Shown here: one piece after another, positions 3,724 to 9,614 of the stretch
How positions within the stretch are numbered: the stretch's first letter is position 1
How the letters are laid out: each line of letters begins with the position of its first letter
Program-made: the position numbers and the translations under genes
Origin: Escherichia phage vB_EcoS_FFH_1
Strand: one strand, 5' to 3'
DNA: 64,000 nucleotides
Sequence record: KJ190157
The notes under the pieces: generated by a model
Told to the model about the DNA's origin: nothing
Database searches by the model: none
Seen by the model: only the letters and a program-made list of their open reading frames with translations

Positions 3724-4245
3724 TTAGAAATTTAGCTTCATAGCAAGAAAATTTTTCAAGTTTTCGGTAGACATCTCATCCACATCTACGGGAGAAACAA
3801 AGCCGTTTAATTTTCTAGCAAATTTTTCACCCGCAGGATCATTGTCCCCAACAGCTACCAATTTAAAAGGTAGTAATTTCAGTTGCTTTAATAACGCTTT
3901 TCCTGGAGAAGAACCCAACATTGCTAGGGCTGGATAACCAGCATTATGTAACGCAACTGCCTTAAATACAGATTCAGCAATCAATACTACTTTTTCATCT
4001 CCATTGAGAGTTTCTAGTCCCCATACACACTGGGTAGTAGAATAAGTAAAGTATTTAGCTTCAAAGGGGCACTTACCATGACCTTTTGGAGCAGAAGGAT
4101 TATAAGTTTGATAGCCCCTCAACATCCCGGAGAAGTCATACAACGGGACTGTTAGCCATCCTTCCGGACTTAACCAGCAATGATATTTATCTGTATCAAA
4201 TCCTCTAGATAAGAGGTGCTGTGTTAGCTCATCAACATTCATATT
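3724..4245 (-). CDS. Toprim-domain protein (DnaG-type fold), about 173 aa
   Basis: Conserved glutamate in LIAESVF and the acidic motif VGDNDPAGE; start taken at the internal ATG (4245) with RBS GAAAGAGGAA, because the longer ORF would overlap the promoter at 4273-4301. Confidence 0.55.
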   Translation of the reverse strand, partial: NMNVDELTQHLLSRGFDTDKYHCWLSPEGWLTVPLYDFSGMLRGYQTYNPSAPKGHGKCPFEAKYFTYSTTQCVWGLETLNGDEKVVLIAESVFKAVALHNAGYPALAMLGSSPGKALLKQLKLLPFKLVAVGDNDPAGEKFARKLNGFVSPVDVDEMSTENLKNFLAMKLNF

Positions 4246-4272
4246 TGGTTCCTCTTTCAAATTTATAGATAT

Positions 4273-4301
4273 ATTATACAGAGAATTTAGCATTCAAGCA
4301 A
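4273..4301 (-). promoter_or_regulatory. Conserved early promoter (TTGCTT-17-TATAAT)
   Basis: Plus attata 4273-4278 and aagcaa 4296-4301. Confidence 0.6.
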
Positions 4302-4446: not shown

Positions 4447-4509
4447 ATATGTTATGGATGAGTGATCAAATAGACACACATTTTCTATATACTAGGAGGT
4501 GTCAAAAAA

Positions 4510-5492
4510 TGACAGAAGAAGTAACTAAGAGTCCTGAGACCGTCGCTAGCGTTGCAGCAGAATTGCACCGTCACGAGGAATCAGATAAGAAAAAGTGGGA
4601 GAAGGTCAGAGCCTACGAAGAAAAACATCGTGAACACGATGATAAAGAAGATGATGATGAACATTGTCATAAATATGGAAAACATAAAATGCAAGAACCA
4701 GTAAACGTATTCACTAGTGGCTTCCCTGGCCTACTGGGTGGTTATCCAGCAAACGCAAGTGCTTTCGGTGGTGAAGGTATGGGACTATTCGGAGCTATCC
4801 TAATCGGTGCTCTATTAACAGGCGGATTCGGTGGTTTCGGTGGATTCGGCGGACGTGGTGTAGTTGGTGAAGGTACCGCAGTTGATGCAGTACTTCAGAA
4901 CCAAGATACCGCTAGTATTCTAGCAGCTATTAACACTACTCGTACAGAAGCTAACCAGGGTACTGGAGCTGTTTTAAGCGCAGTTAACAATGGTTTTAGC
5001 CAGACATCCCAAAACCAGAGCCGTGATACTCAGTCTGTACTGACTACGATCTATGGTACAGGTGCTAATCTGTCTAATCAGATCTGTCAGGAAACTCGCA
5101 ACGTTATTCAGGGTCAGTTCGATCTTTCTCGCCAGATTGATCAATCTTTCGCAGCTAATCAGATAGCTCGTGCACAAGATAAGTTTGATTCTGCACAGAT
5201 CGCTTTCCAGCAGACTTTACAAACTAATAACCAGTTTGCCGCTGTTCAGGCTCAGATGTGTGCTAATCAGAACTCTCTGGAACGTCAGATCGCTGAATGT
5301 TGCTGTGAACTTCAGACTGCGATCGCTGGTGTAACTACTGCGCGTATCCAGGATGAGTTAGATGCATGTCGTCTACGTGAAGCAATCGCTGCGGGTAACG
5401 GTGCTAACGGTCAGGTAATTAATCAAATCGCTGTAAGTCTTGGTGCTATAACTCAGACTCTGGCTGGTCTGCAGGCTAAACTGCCGGCTTAA
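4510..5492 (+). CDS. Low-complexity membrane protein: charged N-terminus, one hydrophobic helix followed by GGFGGFGGFGG, then an N/Q/T/S/A-rich C-terminal region
   Basis: Start taken at the ATG after GGAGG (4510); codon usage biased to GGT/GCT/CGT/CTG unlike neighbouring AT-rich genes; opposite strand to flanking genes. Confidence 0.5.
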
Positions 5493-5513
5493 TATTAAGG
5501 GGAGGAGCCCATT

Positions 5514-5930
5514 ATGAGTAAATATGGTTTTGTAAATAACGGACTTAATCAAAGTATGGGCTCCCAGCAGCCCCTGCCTGGTCTGGATAACCCCTACTTA
5601 CAACAATTGCAACAGCGTTTAGCAGAAGCGCAACAGATGCAGCAACAACTCCAGCAAAACCCTGGAAGTGTGAGTCCTATGCAAATGATGCAGCAAATGA
5701 GCGGGCAGTCGCAAATGCCTCAACAAATGCAGCAACAGGTGCCTCAGCAGCAAGTTCAGCAACAAACCCAACAACCGCAGGTTTCTGCGGAAGGACAGGC
5801 AGTACTAGCCCTTTTCGAAGACTTCGCAAAGACAGAGGATGGGAAACAGCTTGTATCACTTATGGGTAAGTTTAATAGCTTCTGCCAAAGCCAAGTTGCA
5901 AAAGCTCAAAATGGTGGTAATAACTCCTAA
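5514..5930 (+). CDS. Glutamine-rich low-complexity protein (138 aa)
   Basis: RBS GGGGAGGAG upstream; roughly 40 percent Q in the central region. Confidence 0.5.
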   Translation: MSKYGFVNNGLNQSMGSQQPLPGLDNPYLQQLQQRLAEAQQMQQQLQQNPGSVSPMQMMQQMSGQSQMPQQMQQQVPQQQVQQQTQQPQVSAEGQAVLALFEDFAKTEDGKQLVSLMGKFNSFCQSQVAKAQNGGNNS

Positions 5931-5939
5931 GGAGAAATT

Positions 5940-6134
5940 ATGTGTTGCAGAAAACCTGTTTCGTGCTGCCCAATGCCTGTAGCACGTTGTTGCTCTCCAG
6001 CAATGTTTACACAAATACCGGCGTTCAATCCCTTTGCCTTTAAGCCTACTCTTATCCTGCCCCCTAGAGTAGATTTTCAGTCAAGATTGGCCTCCCGTAT
6101 GGGTGGTTGCTGTACACCGAGAGTGTGGTTCTGA
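5940..6134 (+). CDS. Small cysteine-rich protein (64 aa; CC pairs)
   Basis: RBS AAGGAGAAA 5 nt upstream of ATG; followed by an intrinsic terminator. Confidence 0.4.
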   Translation: MCCRKPVSCCPMPVARCCSPAMFTQIPAFNPFAFKPTLILPPRVDFQSRLASRMGGCCTPRVWF

Positions 6135-6150
6135 AGAACCAAACAATAAA

Positions 6151-6186
6151 GCCCCTAGTCGAAAGACTTAGGGGCTTTTCTGTATT
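6151..6186 (+). terminator. Intrinsic terminator ending the plus-strand cassette
   Basis: GC hairpin gcccctag...ctaggggc followed by a T-run. Confidence 0.6.
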
Positions 6187-6190
6187 TAAG

Positions 6191-6230
6191 ATAAAAGAAA
6201 AGCCCTGCGCTCTCCAGGGAACGCAGGGCT
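6191..6230 (-). terminator. Intrinsic terminator downstream of the SPFH gene
   Basis: Hairpin agccctgcg...cgcagggct with an A-run on plus (U-run on the minus transcript). Confidence 0.5.
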
Positions 6231-6254
6231 TACTTCAGATGTTACATGCGGATA

Positions 6255-7202
6255 TTATTTATTACGCATATCCATGATCATTTGACCATCGTAGCCAGTA
6301 CCTACCACAGTCTGTGGTACACCACCTTGATATTTCTGAGCACGAATCATTTCGACTTCCAGTTGTTTCCAACGAATCATCTCAGGAGTAATGGTACGTT
6401 GCAGTGCGGCGTTAGCTTCAGCTTCTTTCTTAGCTGCGTACAGTTTAGCATCTGCGTCACGTTCATTAGCGATAGCTTGGTTGTTGCGAGCTTCACGATC
6501 TGCTTCTGCTTGTTTAACTTTTTGCTGTGCTTCCTGTTCAACACGAGCTAATTCAGCTTTAGCAGCATTAACCTGTTCTTCACGAACTTTGGTATTCTGT
6601 ACCTGTTCCATGATTACCGGTGGCAAAGTAATATCCTGAAGGAATACCTGCTTAACTGTGTAACCATATGGGCGTGCATACTCTTCAACTTCCTGTTGAA
6701 TTGCAGTTTGCAATTGAGCCTGAATTTTAGCATCAAACAAATCTTGTGCTTTAGGTACAGACTTACCAAACTCACGAATAGTAGACAGTAATTTTTCAGT
6801 TACATATTTGTCTAACGCTTGATCCTGAGTACCTGCGTTAATACGGTTAATTGGTGCCTTAGAACCATCAAACTGCAACATAACAGTCAGGTCAACAGTG
6901 GATTTAAACTTATCCTGGCTAGGAACCTGAAGTTTATCTAATTTTACAGCAATATCTTTTGTACTAAAAGTGTCGAAAGATGCAAATGGGTTTACAAGAT
7001 GGAAACCTGGTAATACTGGGTTAGGATCTACTTTACCCAGAAATGTTTGGGTTTTAACCGTACCATCAGAAACAATAGTATATGAATTAAAGGCTAGAAT
7101 CAAGCCTGCTAAACCAACTACAGCACCAATACCCCAACGTTTAATAGTACGAATTACTTTCTGCTCAGAAGTCAGTTCTTTCATATTTTTAGTATTAAAC
7201 AT
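6255..7202 (-). CDS. SPFH/band-7 (prohibitin/HflK-HflC-like) membrane protein
   Basis: N-terminal transmembrane helix, SPFH-like core, long coiled-coil A/E/Q/K-rich C-terminus; RBS AAGGAA. Confidence 0.65.
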   Translation of the reverse strand: MFNTKNMKELTSEQKVIRTIKRWGIGAVVGLAGLILAFNSYTIVSDGTVKTQTFLGKVDPNPVLPGFHLVNPFASFDTFSTKDIAVKLDKLQVPSQDKFKSTVDLTVMLQFDGSKAPINRINAGTQDQALDKYVTEKLLSTIREFGKSVPKAQDLFDAKIQAQLQTAIQQEVEEYARPYGYTVKQVFLQDITLPPVIMEQVQNTKVREEQVNAAKAELARVEQEAQQKVKQAEADREARNNQAIANERDADAKLYAAKKEAEANAALQRTITPEMIRWKQLEVEMIRAQKYQGGVPQTVVGTGYDGQMIMDMRNK

Positions 7203-7236
7203 ATATTTCCTTTGTTTTAGTTACAGTTAATAAAAT

Positions 7237-7311
7237 TGGCCGAGGTGACAGGATTCGAACCTGCATAAAGGAATTTAGAAGACTCCTGCCTCTCCCTTAG
7301 ACTACACCCCG
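7237..7311 (-). tRNA. tRNA-Arg (anticodon TCT), CCA encoded
   Basis: Acceptor CGGGGTG/CACCTCG, anticodon arm GGAGT-CTTCTAA-ATTCC, T-arm GCAGG-TTCGAAT-CCTGT. Confidence 0.7.
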
Positions 7312-7812
7312 TTTAAATATTTTTAAGAACTCTCGTAAAAACTCTTAAAAATACAGACGATACCGGGAGAGTCATAAGTCTCACTCATTAAGTATTTCAA
7401 GACAAAATACAGTAACGTCTATTATTTTCCAGTTTAAGTCAGGGTGACTTAGTGGTTATGTCCTGCGGTATATTGAGGACTCGGTTAGGCTTGGGGTCAT
7501 GACTTCCCGCCTTTTGCTGCTACTCAACAGGAGTTATCGCGAATTACCTGTGCTATTGTGCACCATTAGTGACATCTCTCATGTCAGCATTTCCCACTTT
7601 GTGGATAGCTTGAAAAACTACTCCGATATGGAGAAAAACTTCACTATCCTAGAATACCTTCTAAAGTTCTTCTTTAGCCTGGACATAGTTAAAGCGTAAT
7701 AAAACTATTCAGCAGACTGGTTGGTTAGTCTGGAACCAACTACCGCGTGGTTTAGGCAGTGCGCAACTAACCTCGGAAGCTTTTACGTTAAAAGCATCAG
7801 TTATCCAGTTCT

Positions 7813-7884
7813 TACCGACCGTAGGATTCGAACCTACATCTTCCACCAGTTACGGCTTGATAATACCAATTATACTAGGACGGC
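7813..7884 (-). tRNA. tRNA-like element or pseudo-tRNA; anticodon stem does not pair
   Basis: Good T-arm GTAGG-TTCGAAT-CCTAC and a 6 of 7 acceptor stem; no CCA encoded. Confidence 0.3.
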
Positions 7885-8122
7885 AGTGTTACTACATAAG
7901 TGATTTCCACACCCCACTATTTATAAATTAGAGAAGAGTTTAGGGGAGAGGTTTCAGACGCCTCATTTTACACGTTCTAGCCACTAACCGGGATTGCCGC
8001 CCCCTGTGTACTAGTTTTACAACTAACCCACCGACTCTATTCAACGAATCTTAGTGCTCGACGCATCTTACATTAAGACAAGTTCAGCGTAATCGGCTCG
8101 CTGTTCTCTAATTTATGAATAT

Positions 8123-8151
8123 ATTATACAGAATTTATAAGCATTTAGCAA
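8123..8151 (-). promoter_or_regulatory. Conserved early promoter (TTGCTA-17-TATAAT)
   Basis: Plus attata 8123-8128 and tagcaa 8146-8151. Confidence 0.6.
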
Positions 8152-8159
8152 ATAAATTT

Positions 8160-8603
8160 TTAATTAAATTCGCCAGCAATCTGAGCAGCAGTACCACCAT
8201 CGTAACGCCCAGGAAATTCTTCCTTAATCGCTTTCATCAGCATACCTTTTGTAATTCCAGGGTTTAGCTTAACTAATTCTGCAAAGTATTTACGAATCTC
8301 AGTATCAGATAACTGAGGAGGCAGATACTCCTGCAACCACTTATTTAGAATGTATTCATACTGAGCGGACTGCAAGCTATAACTATCAAGATCTTGACCA
8401 TGAAGTTTAGCTTTCATCTGGTTAATGCTTTTTAGTTGAGCTTTGAGATAAGACACAAATTGTTCAGAAGTGATGAAATCTTTATCAATACGCTGAAGAT
8501 CCCCGATTATGGTCTGATAGCTTTTAGCGACTTCTTTATCAGAACCATTAAACTTAGAATCCTGCAAAGCTCTACGCAAAACATCTAAAATATTCTCTTC
8601 CAT
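8160..8603 (-). CDS. GatB/YqeY-domain protein
   Basis: YLPPQLSDTEI and the C-terminal GITKGMLMKAIKEEFPGRYDGG pattern resemble the YqeY family as recalled from memory. Confidence 0.55.
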   Translation of the reverse strand: MEENILDVLRRALQDSKFNGSDKEVAKSYQTIIGDLQRIDKDFITSEQFVSYLKAQLKSINQMKAKLHGQDLDSYSLQSAQYEYILNKWLQEYLPPQLSDTEIRKYFAELVKLNPGITKGMLMKAIKEEFPGRYDGGTAAQIAGEFN

Positions 8604-8841: not shown

Positions 8842-9291
8842 TTAAGTTTTAGTGACAACAGGTTTATAAAACGTATGTCCCTTAATCTTAGTTGTTTTCT
8901 TAAACTTCTTTGTCCAGTAAGGTTTATCTTTACCACTATGGAAGTATAGTGCTCCATATGTAGGATCTTGTGGTAAATCAACGTAGTATATCACTCTAGC
9001 TAAATTCTTAGCGGTTTGCCAAGCCTCATCAGTTTTATCAACTTTTGGTCTCTTAGATACCCAAGAGAACTGGTTAGACTGATATACTACTTTACAGTAG
9101 GAATCTGGGAATTTACCGGAGTTTACACGGTTCTTAGTAACATGTGCAATCGCCGTCATTCCCTTTATGCCCTCACCACGACTTTCGAAATAGATATTTT
9201 TAGCAATGCAATCTATTTCTTTTGCATCGTGCGATGCCTGACTACTAAAGCTGAAGGTAAGGGCAGCTACTAAAAGCAAAGCTGCCTTCAT
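8842..9291 (-). CDS. Secreted cell-wall hydrolase, SleB/Hydrolase_2 family
   Basis: Signal peptide MKAALLLVAALTFSFSSQA and the IYFESRGE motif; start taken at the ATG preceded by AGGAG. Confidence 0.6.
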   Translation of the reverse strand: MKAALLLVAALTFSFSSQASHDAKEIDCIAKNIYFESRGEGIKGMTAIAHVTKNRVNSGKFPDSYCKVVYQSNQFSWVSKRPKVDKTDEAWQTAKNLARVIYYVDLPQDPTYGALYFHSGKDKPYWTKKFKKTTKIKGHTFYKPVVTKT

Positions 9292-9296
9292 TCTTT

Positions 9297-9614
9297 TTAC
9301 TCCTGCCAATCATATTCAACACGATTGGGATTTTCTTTATACCCTAAGTCAAGCAAATCATTACGCATAGTTTGCTTAGCTACGGGATTCGAGGTTACTA
9401 GTACCACTTTCTTTGGTCTCTGCCCAAACTCTAAGAGTAAACGAAGAATTTGATAACCTTCCATACCATCTACAGCCAAGTCATTATCCATATAAACGAA
9501 GTGGCCTGTGGTATCAGTTTTATTCAGAAACTTTACAGCGGCTTCTGGGGTTCGAATGATAATGTCCATTCCGTGAAGATTACGCACATCATCAATCAAA
9601 ATATGAAAAGTCAT
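9297..9614 (-). CDS. Small alpha/beta protein with a CheY-like receiver pattern (tentative)
   Basis: HILIDDV (acidic pair), FVYMDNDL, VVLVTSNP spacing resembles a REC domain; could instead be another Rossmann-like fold. Confidence 0.35.
   Translation of the reverse strand: MTFHILIDDVRNLHGMDIIIRTPEAAVKFLNKTDTTGHFVYMDNDLAVDGMEGYQILRLLLEFGQRPKKVVLVTSNPVAKQTMRNDLLDLGYKENPNRVEYDWQE

Follow-up and report, generated by a model that had tools for sequence, protein, structure and literature searches.

A phage T5.080 orthologue is a single-gene SPFH/band-7 protein that may form a periplasm-facing dome

The minus-strand gene at positions 6255..7202 of the window (the whole 64,000-nucleotide stretch of phage DNA analysed here) encodes an SPFH/band-7 protein and, judged by its sequence, is the orthologue of gene T5.080 of phage T5. 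The explanation we favour, with moderate confidence, is that this accessory gene supplies a periplasm-facing SPFH dome that sequesters a membrane protein, each copy being modelled with a basic cytoplasmic N-tail, an uncleaved anchor, the SPFH domain, two long helices and a conserved tail. The SPFH identification, which the original prediction had made from the sequence alone, is right and was already known at annotation level: GenBank records such as VAH1, oldekolle and JLBYU43 already name the gene an SPFH/band 7 family protein, and Nolan et al. 2006 gave its homologues in the T4-like phages 44RR, Aeh1 and RB43 this Pfam domain (PMC1524935). To this we add the refutation of a lipoprotein label, a reasoned case for periplasmic orientation, the definition of a clade without partner genes and the documentation of dispensability.

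The Pfam Band_7 profile (PF01145) matched residues 52-225 (6528..7049, minus strand) at E=2e-17, scoring 64.2 bits where the curated cut-off is 23.6, so the profile search came out significant by 40 bits and upheld the view that the phage encodes an SPFH protein. PHROG 200 was matched at 1.7e-86, and a sequence search of the PDB gave QmcA (1.8e-6) and prohibitin-2 (8.6e-5) as best matches, along with prohibitin-1 and an archaeal stomatin. We built an AlphaFold2 monomer model on a 25-sequence alignment of the family (mean pLDDT 77.5), in which residues 12-39 form a helix and 41-192 a globular alpha/beta SPFH domain; two further helices (195-270 and 273-290) lead into a C-terminal tail, whose candidate cap segment has pLDDT <50. 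Compared with the PDB by Foldseek, this model aligned with SPFH cage protomers at probability 1.00 over about 270-325 columns. Its matches were erlin1/2 (2.5e-14), PHB (1e-12), the HflK/C chains of FtsH complexes (7vhq, 7wi3 and 9cz2; 1e-9 to 1e-11) and flotillin (6e-8), and they also included stomatin, QmcA-YbbJ and the vault shoulder; every top match was a cage-forming SPFH protein. The model thus shows the T5.080 orthologue with the complete protomer layout of cage-forming SPFH proteins, matching them over almost all of its length, and "prohibitin-like", the wording of the original prediction, fairly describes the fold.

Hydropathy, charge counts and the model helix at 12-39 all point to a hydrophobic N-terminal anchor at residues 23-43 (WGIGAVVGLAGLILAFNSYTI; 7074..7136, minus strand), the sole hydrophobic segment of the protein (Kyte-Doolittle mean 1.79), as would be expected of the membrane protein that had been proposed. 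The 22-residue N-tail before it is basic, with six lysine or arginine residues (K/R), and we read the segment as a predicted uncleaved type II signal anchor, N-in. Residues 195-290 (6333..6620, minus strand), delimited by model secondary structure, the family alignment and Foldseek, comprise a long helix rich in Ala, Glu and Gln (195-270) and a second helix (273-290), which in the model take the place of the CC1 and CC2 wall in SPFH cages. In the 25-sequence alignment no part of the family is better conserved than this helical region, and invariant columns lie mostly in the helices and the tail (in the helices, for example, A245, E247, R248, L254, K259, E260, N264, L267, Q268, T270 and T272). 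Where relatives carry insertions in the helical region, these measure exactly 11 (four cases) or 22 residues (one case) and amount to whole helical repeats, which would fit a helix packed into a wall that can grow or shrink only in register. Helix conservation and the 11- and 22-residue insertions therefore lend indirect support to the predicted cage assembly. The conserved C-terminal tail (residues 291-315; 6258..6332, minus strand), seen in both the alignment and the model, has near-invariant Y291, G293, P296, T298, G301, D311 and R313 and was given short strands of low confidence by the model; it is a candidate cap-forming segment.

Many RefSeq product names and the description of PHROG 200 instead call the protein a lipoprotein, and a minority of its relatives do have a lipobox. 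For the T5.080 copy we consider this label ruled out and the reading behind it practically impossible, because the SPFH protein has zero cysteines; with no cysteine there is no lipobox, and lipid modification there cannot occur. Among close homologues a lipobox was present in only 1 of 117, that of Morganella phage Mm5, while a PROSITE-type lipoprotein signal replaces the anchor in 14 of 118 distant full-length representatives of the clade. The label probably came from relatives.

The reading frame for the 315-aa protein, identified from the list of open reading frames and by its Pfam, PHROG and T5.080 matches, starts with ATG and ends with a stop codon at 6255-6257, within its span, exactly where the original prediction had placed it; a Shine-Dalgarno sequence, AAGGA, can be read 5 nt 5' of the ATG (7208..7212, minus strand). 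Its product is 99.4% identical in amino acids to T5.080 (YP_006908.1; phage T5, NC_005859). The 5-kb surroundings share 99.1% identity with Escherichia phage SP15 and 97-99% with many other Tequintavirus records among the matches listed, which by sequence identifies the source of the window as a T5-like phage and agrees with the predicted phage context.

Signals around the gene suggest that it closes a transcription unit. An intrinsic terminator hairpin, found by a terminator scan and visible in the sequence (6200..6231, minus strand), lies 24 nt past the stop codon and has a 13-bp G+C-rich stem with 8 G-C pairs followed by a T-run; in its 3' arm, at ~6210/6211, is GA/GCGC, the equivalent of a site that the T5 record marks as a major single-strand interruption (nick). 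Beyond it lies a second hairpin (AAAAGCCCCTA...TAGGGGCTTT; 6148..6179, strand not given), recognised from the sequence and the T5 annotation as the counterpart of T5's "efficient bidirectional rho-independent terminator". On the other side, a tRNA-Arg(tct) gene (7237..7311, minus strand; ARAGORN, Rfam and T5 annotation) shares the strand of the SPFH gene and lies 34 nt upstream of it. The nearest promoter 5' of the gene on its own strand is a sigma-70-type promoter-like site (8123..8151, minus strand; TTGCTA-17-TATAAT, 10/12 matches), located by sequence scan and T5 annotation as the counterpart of T5 promoter "P 16-17"; the promoter scan returned no promoter-like site on the minus strand from 7203 to 8122, and an Rfam scan of the intervening "rnaX" region gave tRNA-type matches only. 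The SPFH gene, which lies in the phage's tRNA region, is thus probably the last cistron of a promoter-rnaX-tRNA-Arg-SPFH unit, and would probably be transcribed with rnaX and tRNA-Arg from the host-type promoter P16-17.

The 6148..6179 hairpin parts the SPFH gene from the antisense low-complexity cassette beside it, T5.077-079. The original prediction had taken this adjacency as a hint to function, and here it did not hold up. T5.077 was found in 221 records, all of them T5-like save for one partial match in Pseudomonas phage KPP23, against 724 for the SPFH gene, and none of the T4-like SPFH carriers has the cassette, so the arrangement is specific to one lineage. The two units are transcribed convergently with terminators between them, and their adjacency is therefore not evidence of common function; on these grounds we set aside, as unsupported, a functional link between the SPFH gene and T5.077-079.

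Two observations bear on whether the phage needs the gene. In a genome-wide CRISPRi-ART screen of T5, T5.080 was scored "Not Fit" (PMC11879866, supplementary file 16). The Epseptimavirus NG_S8, a viable sewage isolate, retains only the last 42 codons of the SPFH gene; most of T5.076 and the T5.077-079 cassette are missing there as well. The SPFH gene is apparently kept in every other T5-like record to which the 5-kb region matched. Because of the screen result, the loss in NG_S8 and the retention elsewhere, we regard T5.080 as an accessory gene that is maintained in nature and that the phage can do without in the laboratory.

A tblastn search detected the SPFH protein in 724 phage records that span several families, a distribution far beyond chance. 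Carriers include T5-like phages of Salmonella and Escherichia, T4-like phages of Klebsiella, Enterobacter, Cronobacter and Pantoea (72-78% identity) and of Aeromonas (~60%), and, more distantly, Vibrio N4-like and Aeromonas Angelvirus phages. The window protein is 78% identical to the Klebsiella T4-like copies versus 73% to an Epseptimavirus T5-like copy, and in a neighbour-joining tree (without support values) it lies nearer to the Klebsiella T4-like copies than to the Epseptimavirus copy. This grouping indicates that the SPFH gene has been exchanged between unrelated virulent phage families. An exhaustive profile search of 1.84 billion representatives returned only 85 clusters at E<=1e-30, 339 at 1e-10 and 1,940 at 1e-3, and by these sequence criteria T5.080 belongs to a small separate SPFH clade that spans T5-like, T4-like and N4-like virulent phages and some Gammaproteobacterial chromosomes. 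Chromosomal members occur in Morganella and Providencia (57-59% identity), the Morganella gene lying between TetR/ADH genes and an HlyD/ABC-C39 exporter, and in methylotrophic and other Gammaproteobacteria (33-41%); the order accD-folC-SPFH was fixed in 11 loci of this second group, and no prophage context was found among the chromosomal loci examined. Other phages, and giant viruses too, commonly encode SPFH folds.

The clade is set apart from characterised SPFH proteins in both sequence and gene organisation. Run against E. coli, the family profile scored QmcA at 32.8 bits, HflC at 18.1 and HflK at 1.1, with no match to YqiK; the NCBIfam scan gave no family at E<=1, and hence no curated HflK, HflC or QmcA equivalog, and the PADLOC scan gave no defence-protein family at E<=1. 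On these comparisons the protein is not HflK, HflC, QmcA or flotillin. We rejected an HflK/HflC orthologue on the NCBIfam result and the low HflC and HflK scores, and a flotillin of the YqiK type on the unmatched YqiK, a length of 315 aa against ~500 aa and a Foldseek match of only 6e-8. Whether in T5, the T4-like and N4-like phages or the 61 bacterial loci, the clade's genes have no second SPFH gene beside them, and no NfeD partner was found in the window or in other phage loci, nor did a tblastn search with YbbJ match in 61 bacterial loci; in E. coli, by contrast, ybbJ adjoins qmcA and hflK and hflC are paired. The clade is therefore a single-gene SPFH system with no partner gene in the loci examined.

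The SPFH domains of HflK and HflC face the periplasm, whereas those of QmcA and YqiK face the cytoplasm. In the 15 residues before the anchor, all 25 aligned family members have one to five K/R (T5.080 has four), and the E. coli controls have two in HflK, two in HflC and none in QmcA or YqiK. Simply comparing the number of K/R on either side of the anchor is a weak rule, mispredicting both the HflK and the HflC control, and our reading used only the presence or absence of K/R on its N-terminal side. In the lipoprotein-anchored relatives the domain would lie outside the cytoplasm, an argument that concerns those members rather than T5.080 itself. Because of the basic N-tail and these relatives we favour a periplasmic orientation, and the comparison suggests that the SPFH domain and helices face the periplasm as in HflK/C, prohibitin and erlin. 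The opposite arrangement, a stomatin- or QmcA-type scaffold (N-out, C-in) organising a microdomain on the cytoplasmic face, draws on QmcA being the best sequence match among both solved structures and E. coli paralogues, yet we hold it to be very improbable: QmcA and YqiK lack the K/R that the family has before the anchor, a 22-residue tail with six K/R would need to cross the membrane, some clade members are lipoproteins, and the NfeD partner is absent although QmcA-type genes pair with NfeD (ybbJ-qmcA).

Under the periplasm-facing reading that we prefer, the SPFH domain and helices would stand in the periplasm, oriented as in HflK/C, prohibitin and erlin; many copies would assemble into a homo-oligomeric dome fencing off a patch of inner membrane; and during infection this dome may sequester or shield a membrane protein of host or phage, presumably to the benefit of the phage. 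By analogy with HflK/C, the best single candidate client would be host FtsH. The original prediction's suggestions of action on FtsH, membrane quality control or exclusion may fit the predicted periplasmic orientation and are speculative; its interpretation is partly supported, right on the domain and conjectural on function. Lambda CIII provides an example of a phage targeting FtsH, and one specific version of the idea is that the phage product mimics HflK/C, with a cage that encloses or displaces FtsH hexamers on the periplasmic side, alters FtsH access to membrane substrates and stabilises membrane proteins of phage or host. Its predicted orientation is that of HflK/C, and its fold matches the HflK/C chains in FtsH complexes. 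HflK SPFH domains touch the FtsH periplasmic domain, for example through HflK Arg191 (PMC12048511), the pairwise similarity to HflK being too low to place an equivalent of Arg191 reliably. Against FtsH as the client, the family profile is nearer to cytoplasm-facing QmcA than to HflC or HflK, and distance from HflK/C in sequence, with no NCBIfam HflK/HflC match, together with single-gene organisation argues against simple mimicry of an obligate hetero-oligomer made from two adjacent paralogues. The carriers seen (T5-, T4- and N4-like) are virulent phages, to which the classical CII/lysogeny argument does not extend, and knockdown gave no laboratory phenotype; the single-gene coding of the chromosomal members also hints that these have a function of their own and are not HflK/C mimics. 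We therefore regard the HflK/C mimic as possible but unlikely.

A role in superinfection exclusion or as a barrier to injection, in which a periplasmic cage would block entry of secondary phage DNA (in the manner of T4 Imm or Sp) or mask an entry factor, strikes us as distinctly improbable, and we know of no SPFH protein that acts in this way. It would suit an accessory and probably early gene for a membrane protein with a predicted periplasmic domain, one that is conserved in nature, neutral in single-phage laboratory assays and, as the 78% identity of T5-like to Klebsiella T4-like copies indicates, passed horizontally between unrelated virulent phages that share hosts, a pattern typical of competition genes. 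In T4-like phages of the RB43/Slopekvirus type, moreover, the SPFH gene follows rI and rI.-1, a superinfection-sensing module, and this placement in enterobacterial T4-like phages is suggestive, if weakly, of periplasmic or lysis-inhibition biology. The adjacency is absent in the Aeromonas T4-like phage 60AhydR15PP, however (its 87-aa upstream gene belongs to PHROG 9870 and is not RI), and lies in a hyperplastic region; there is no PADLOC match, and the stable chromosomal orthologues in housekeeping contexts (accD-folC-SPFH) point to a general membrane role. A part in membrane or lysis timing is a further conceivable function. A broader proposal, that the partner-less periplasmic dome serves as weapon or shield in conflicts between phages or between phage and defence, is likewise a long shot. 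Its target might be an inner-membrane entry factor, a membrane-acting abortive-infection effector or FtsH, and if FtsH were walled off, short-lived phage membrane proteins might survive. Such a role would explain the swapping of the gene between phage families, its near-universal retention in T5-like phages and its neutrality in a defence-poor strain, and, if true, it would give both virus-encoded SPFH proteins and the bacterial clade their first assigned function.

Our literature search found no function reported for a phage SPFH protein, with terms for T5.080 and SPFH returning passing annotations only, and the HIDEN-SEQ preprint does not cover T5.080. Many phages and giant viruses encode SPFH proteins, and T5 offers a tractable model with a compact single-gene copy. 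Study of T5.080 could reveal what a viral SPFH cage encloses, and would inform the Morganella, Providencia and methylotroph members of the clade. The practical value is limited to a corrected "lipoprotein" label and a proposed periplasmic orientation.

Among known genes, T5.080 and its Tequintavirus and Epseptimavirus orthologues show no substantive difference from the window gene, and in T5 the gene lies on the same strand and in the same place, between tRNA-Arg and the bidirectional terminator. The T4-like genes RB43 ORF139c, 44RR ORF098c, Aeh1 ORF064c and GAP161_127 belong to the same clade (60-78% identity) and have the same length and architecture, but they sit in unrelated myoviruses in the setting tk, rI, rI.-1, SPFH, natV. 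Chromosomal members share the NSYT(I/V)V start of the domain past the anchor and the absence of a partner gene, and differ in occupying stable housekeeping neighbourhoods rather than phage genomes.

HflK/HflC is a 12+12 hetero-oligomer that forms an FtsH-associated periplasmic SPFH cage. The phage protein resembles it in fold, protomer layout and N-terminal anchor and, as predicted, would share its periplasmic orientation; it differs in being encoded by a single gene rather than two adjacent paralogues and in its very low sequence similarity. QmcA-YbbJ (PDB 8z5g) is the closest solved structure by sequence, QmcA having 305 aa and the same fold; however, QmcA lacks the basic N-tail and is encoded beside the NfeD gene ybbJ, whereas the phage gene has no NfeD neighbour. 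Prohibitins and erlins are type II anchored with a non-cytosolic SPFH domain, and their cages are linked to membrane protein quality control. They are the top structural matches to the phage model (erlin 2.5e-14, PHB 1e-12), and differ in being two-paralogue hetero-oligomers of organelle membranes with only 15-19% identity to the phage protein.

The SPFH gene probably shares a transcript with the counterpart of rnaX (window ~7312-8030, minus strand), which lies directly upstream of it between promoter P16-17 and tRNA-Arg and is placed from the T5 record, where rnaX is annotated as a stable RNA, 719 nt long and of unknown function. An Rfam scan of this region returned a single tRNA-like match (window 7813-7884, minus strand; 35.5 bits, against a gathering score of 29 for the tRNA model) and no other family at E<=1. 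ARAGORN called no tRNA at window 7813-7884, and some GenBank records list a "tRNA-OTHER" at the corresponding position; these coordinates may mark a degenerate tRNA or a tRNA-like element embedded in rnaX.

Farther upstream, we detected several genes on the same strand with recognizable domains. The orthologue of T5.083 (window 8842-9309, minus strand), from which the SPFH gene lies three genes downstream, encodes a cell-wall hydrolase of the SleB type (Hydrolase_2 at 3.8e-25). The N-terminus of this protein resembles a Sec signal peptide, MAGVKRMKAALLLVAALTFSFSSQAS, and the product would be a secreted muralytic enzyme. The T5.084 orthologue (window 9297-9614, minus strand) has a domain matching cREC_REC, the "cyclic-phosphate processing receiver", at 1.9e-14, and that of T5.081 (window 8160-8603, minus strand) is YqeY/GatB-like and matches a PHROG annotated as "tRNA amidotransferase". 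Because both of these genes sit within the tRNA gene region, there are hints of tRNA or RNA-repair functions for the two proteins.

On the other side, the T5.077-079 cassette in the ORF list (window 4449-6134, plus strand) is convergent to the SPFH gene, and its products are compositionally unusual: T5.077 has an N-terminal part rich in His/Asp/Glu, a hydrophobic stretch rich in Gly (GFGGFGGFGG), and a C-terminal part rich in Gln, T5.078 is Gln-rich, and T5.079 is a 64-aa ORF with numerous cysteines, including CC pairs. A Pfam search of the cassette gave zero matches, and its PHROG matches were only to families of unknown function. T5.077 was found in just 221 records, all T5-like except for Pseudomonas phage KPP23 (a partial, 60% match). 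All three cassette genes were scored "Not Fit" in CRISPRi-ART, a genome-wide T5 knockdown screen (PMC11879866). The supplementary table of that screen lists T5.076 as "anti-defense, Known" and "Semi-Fit" (PMC11879866); its orthologue here (window 3724-4293, minus strand) is a short "DNA primase"-like protein with Toprim as its sole domain (Toprim_2 at 2.6e-5). A deletion or replacement affects this stretch in the natural T5-like E. coli phage isolate NG_S8 (LC788711.1, 3750-4400), which lacks the entire T5.077-079 cassette and most of T5.076, and retains only the last 42 codons of the SPFH gene, the 5' part being replaced by an unrelated 66-aa ORF.

A protein 73% identical to the SPFH protein is encoded on a 178,077-bp contig (NZ_JBHSCL010000010.1) of a "Flagellimonas marina" (Flavobacteriia) assembly. 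The contig is probably a phage contaminant of that assembly, because its length fits the genomes of Enterobacterial T4-like phages, at about 178 kb. Just past the SPFH gene, the window retains GA/GCGC (~6210-6211, minus strand) in the 3' arm of that gene's terminator stem (hairpin 6200-6231). The equivalent position in the T5 record, 44-45 nt past the T5.080 stop, is annotated as a "major DNA single-chain interruption", a nick with consensus Pu/GCGC.
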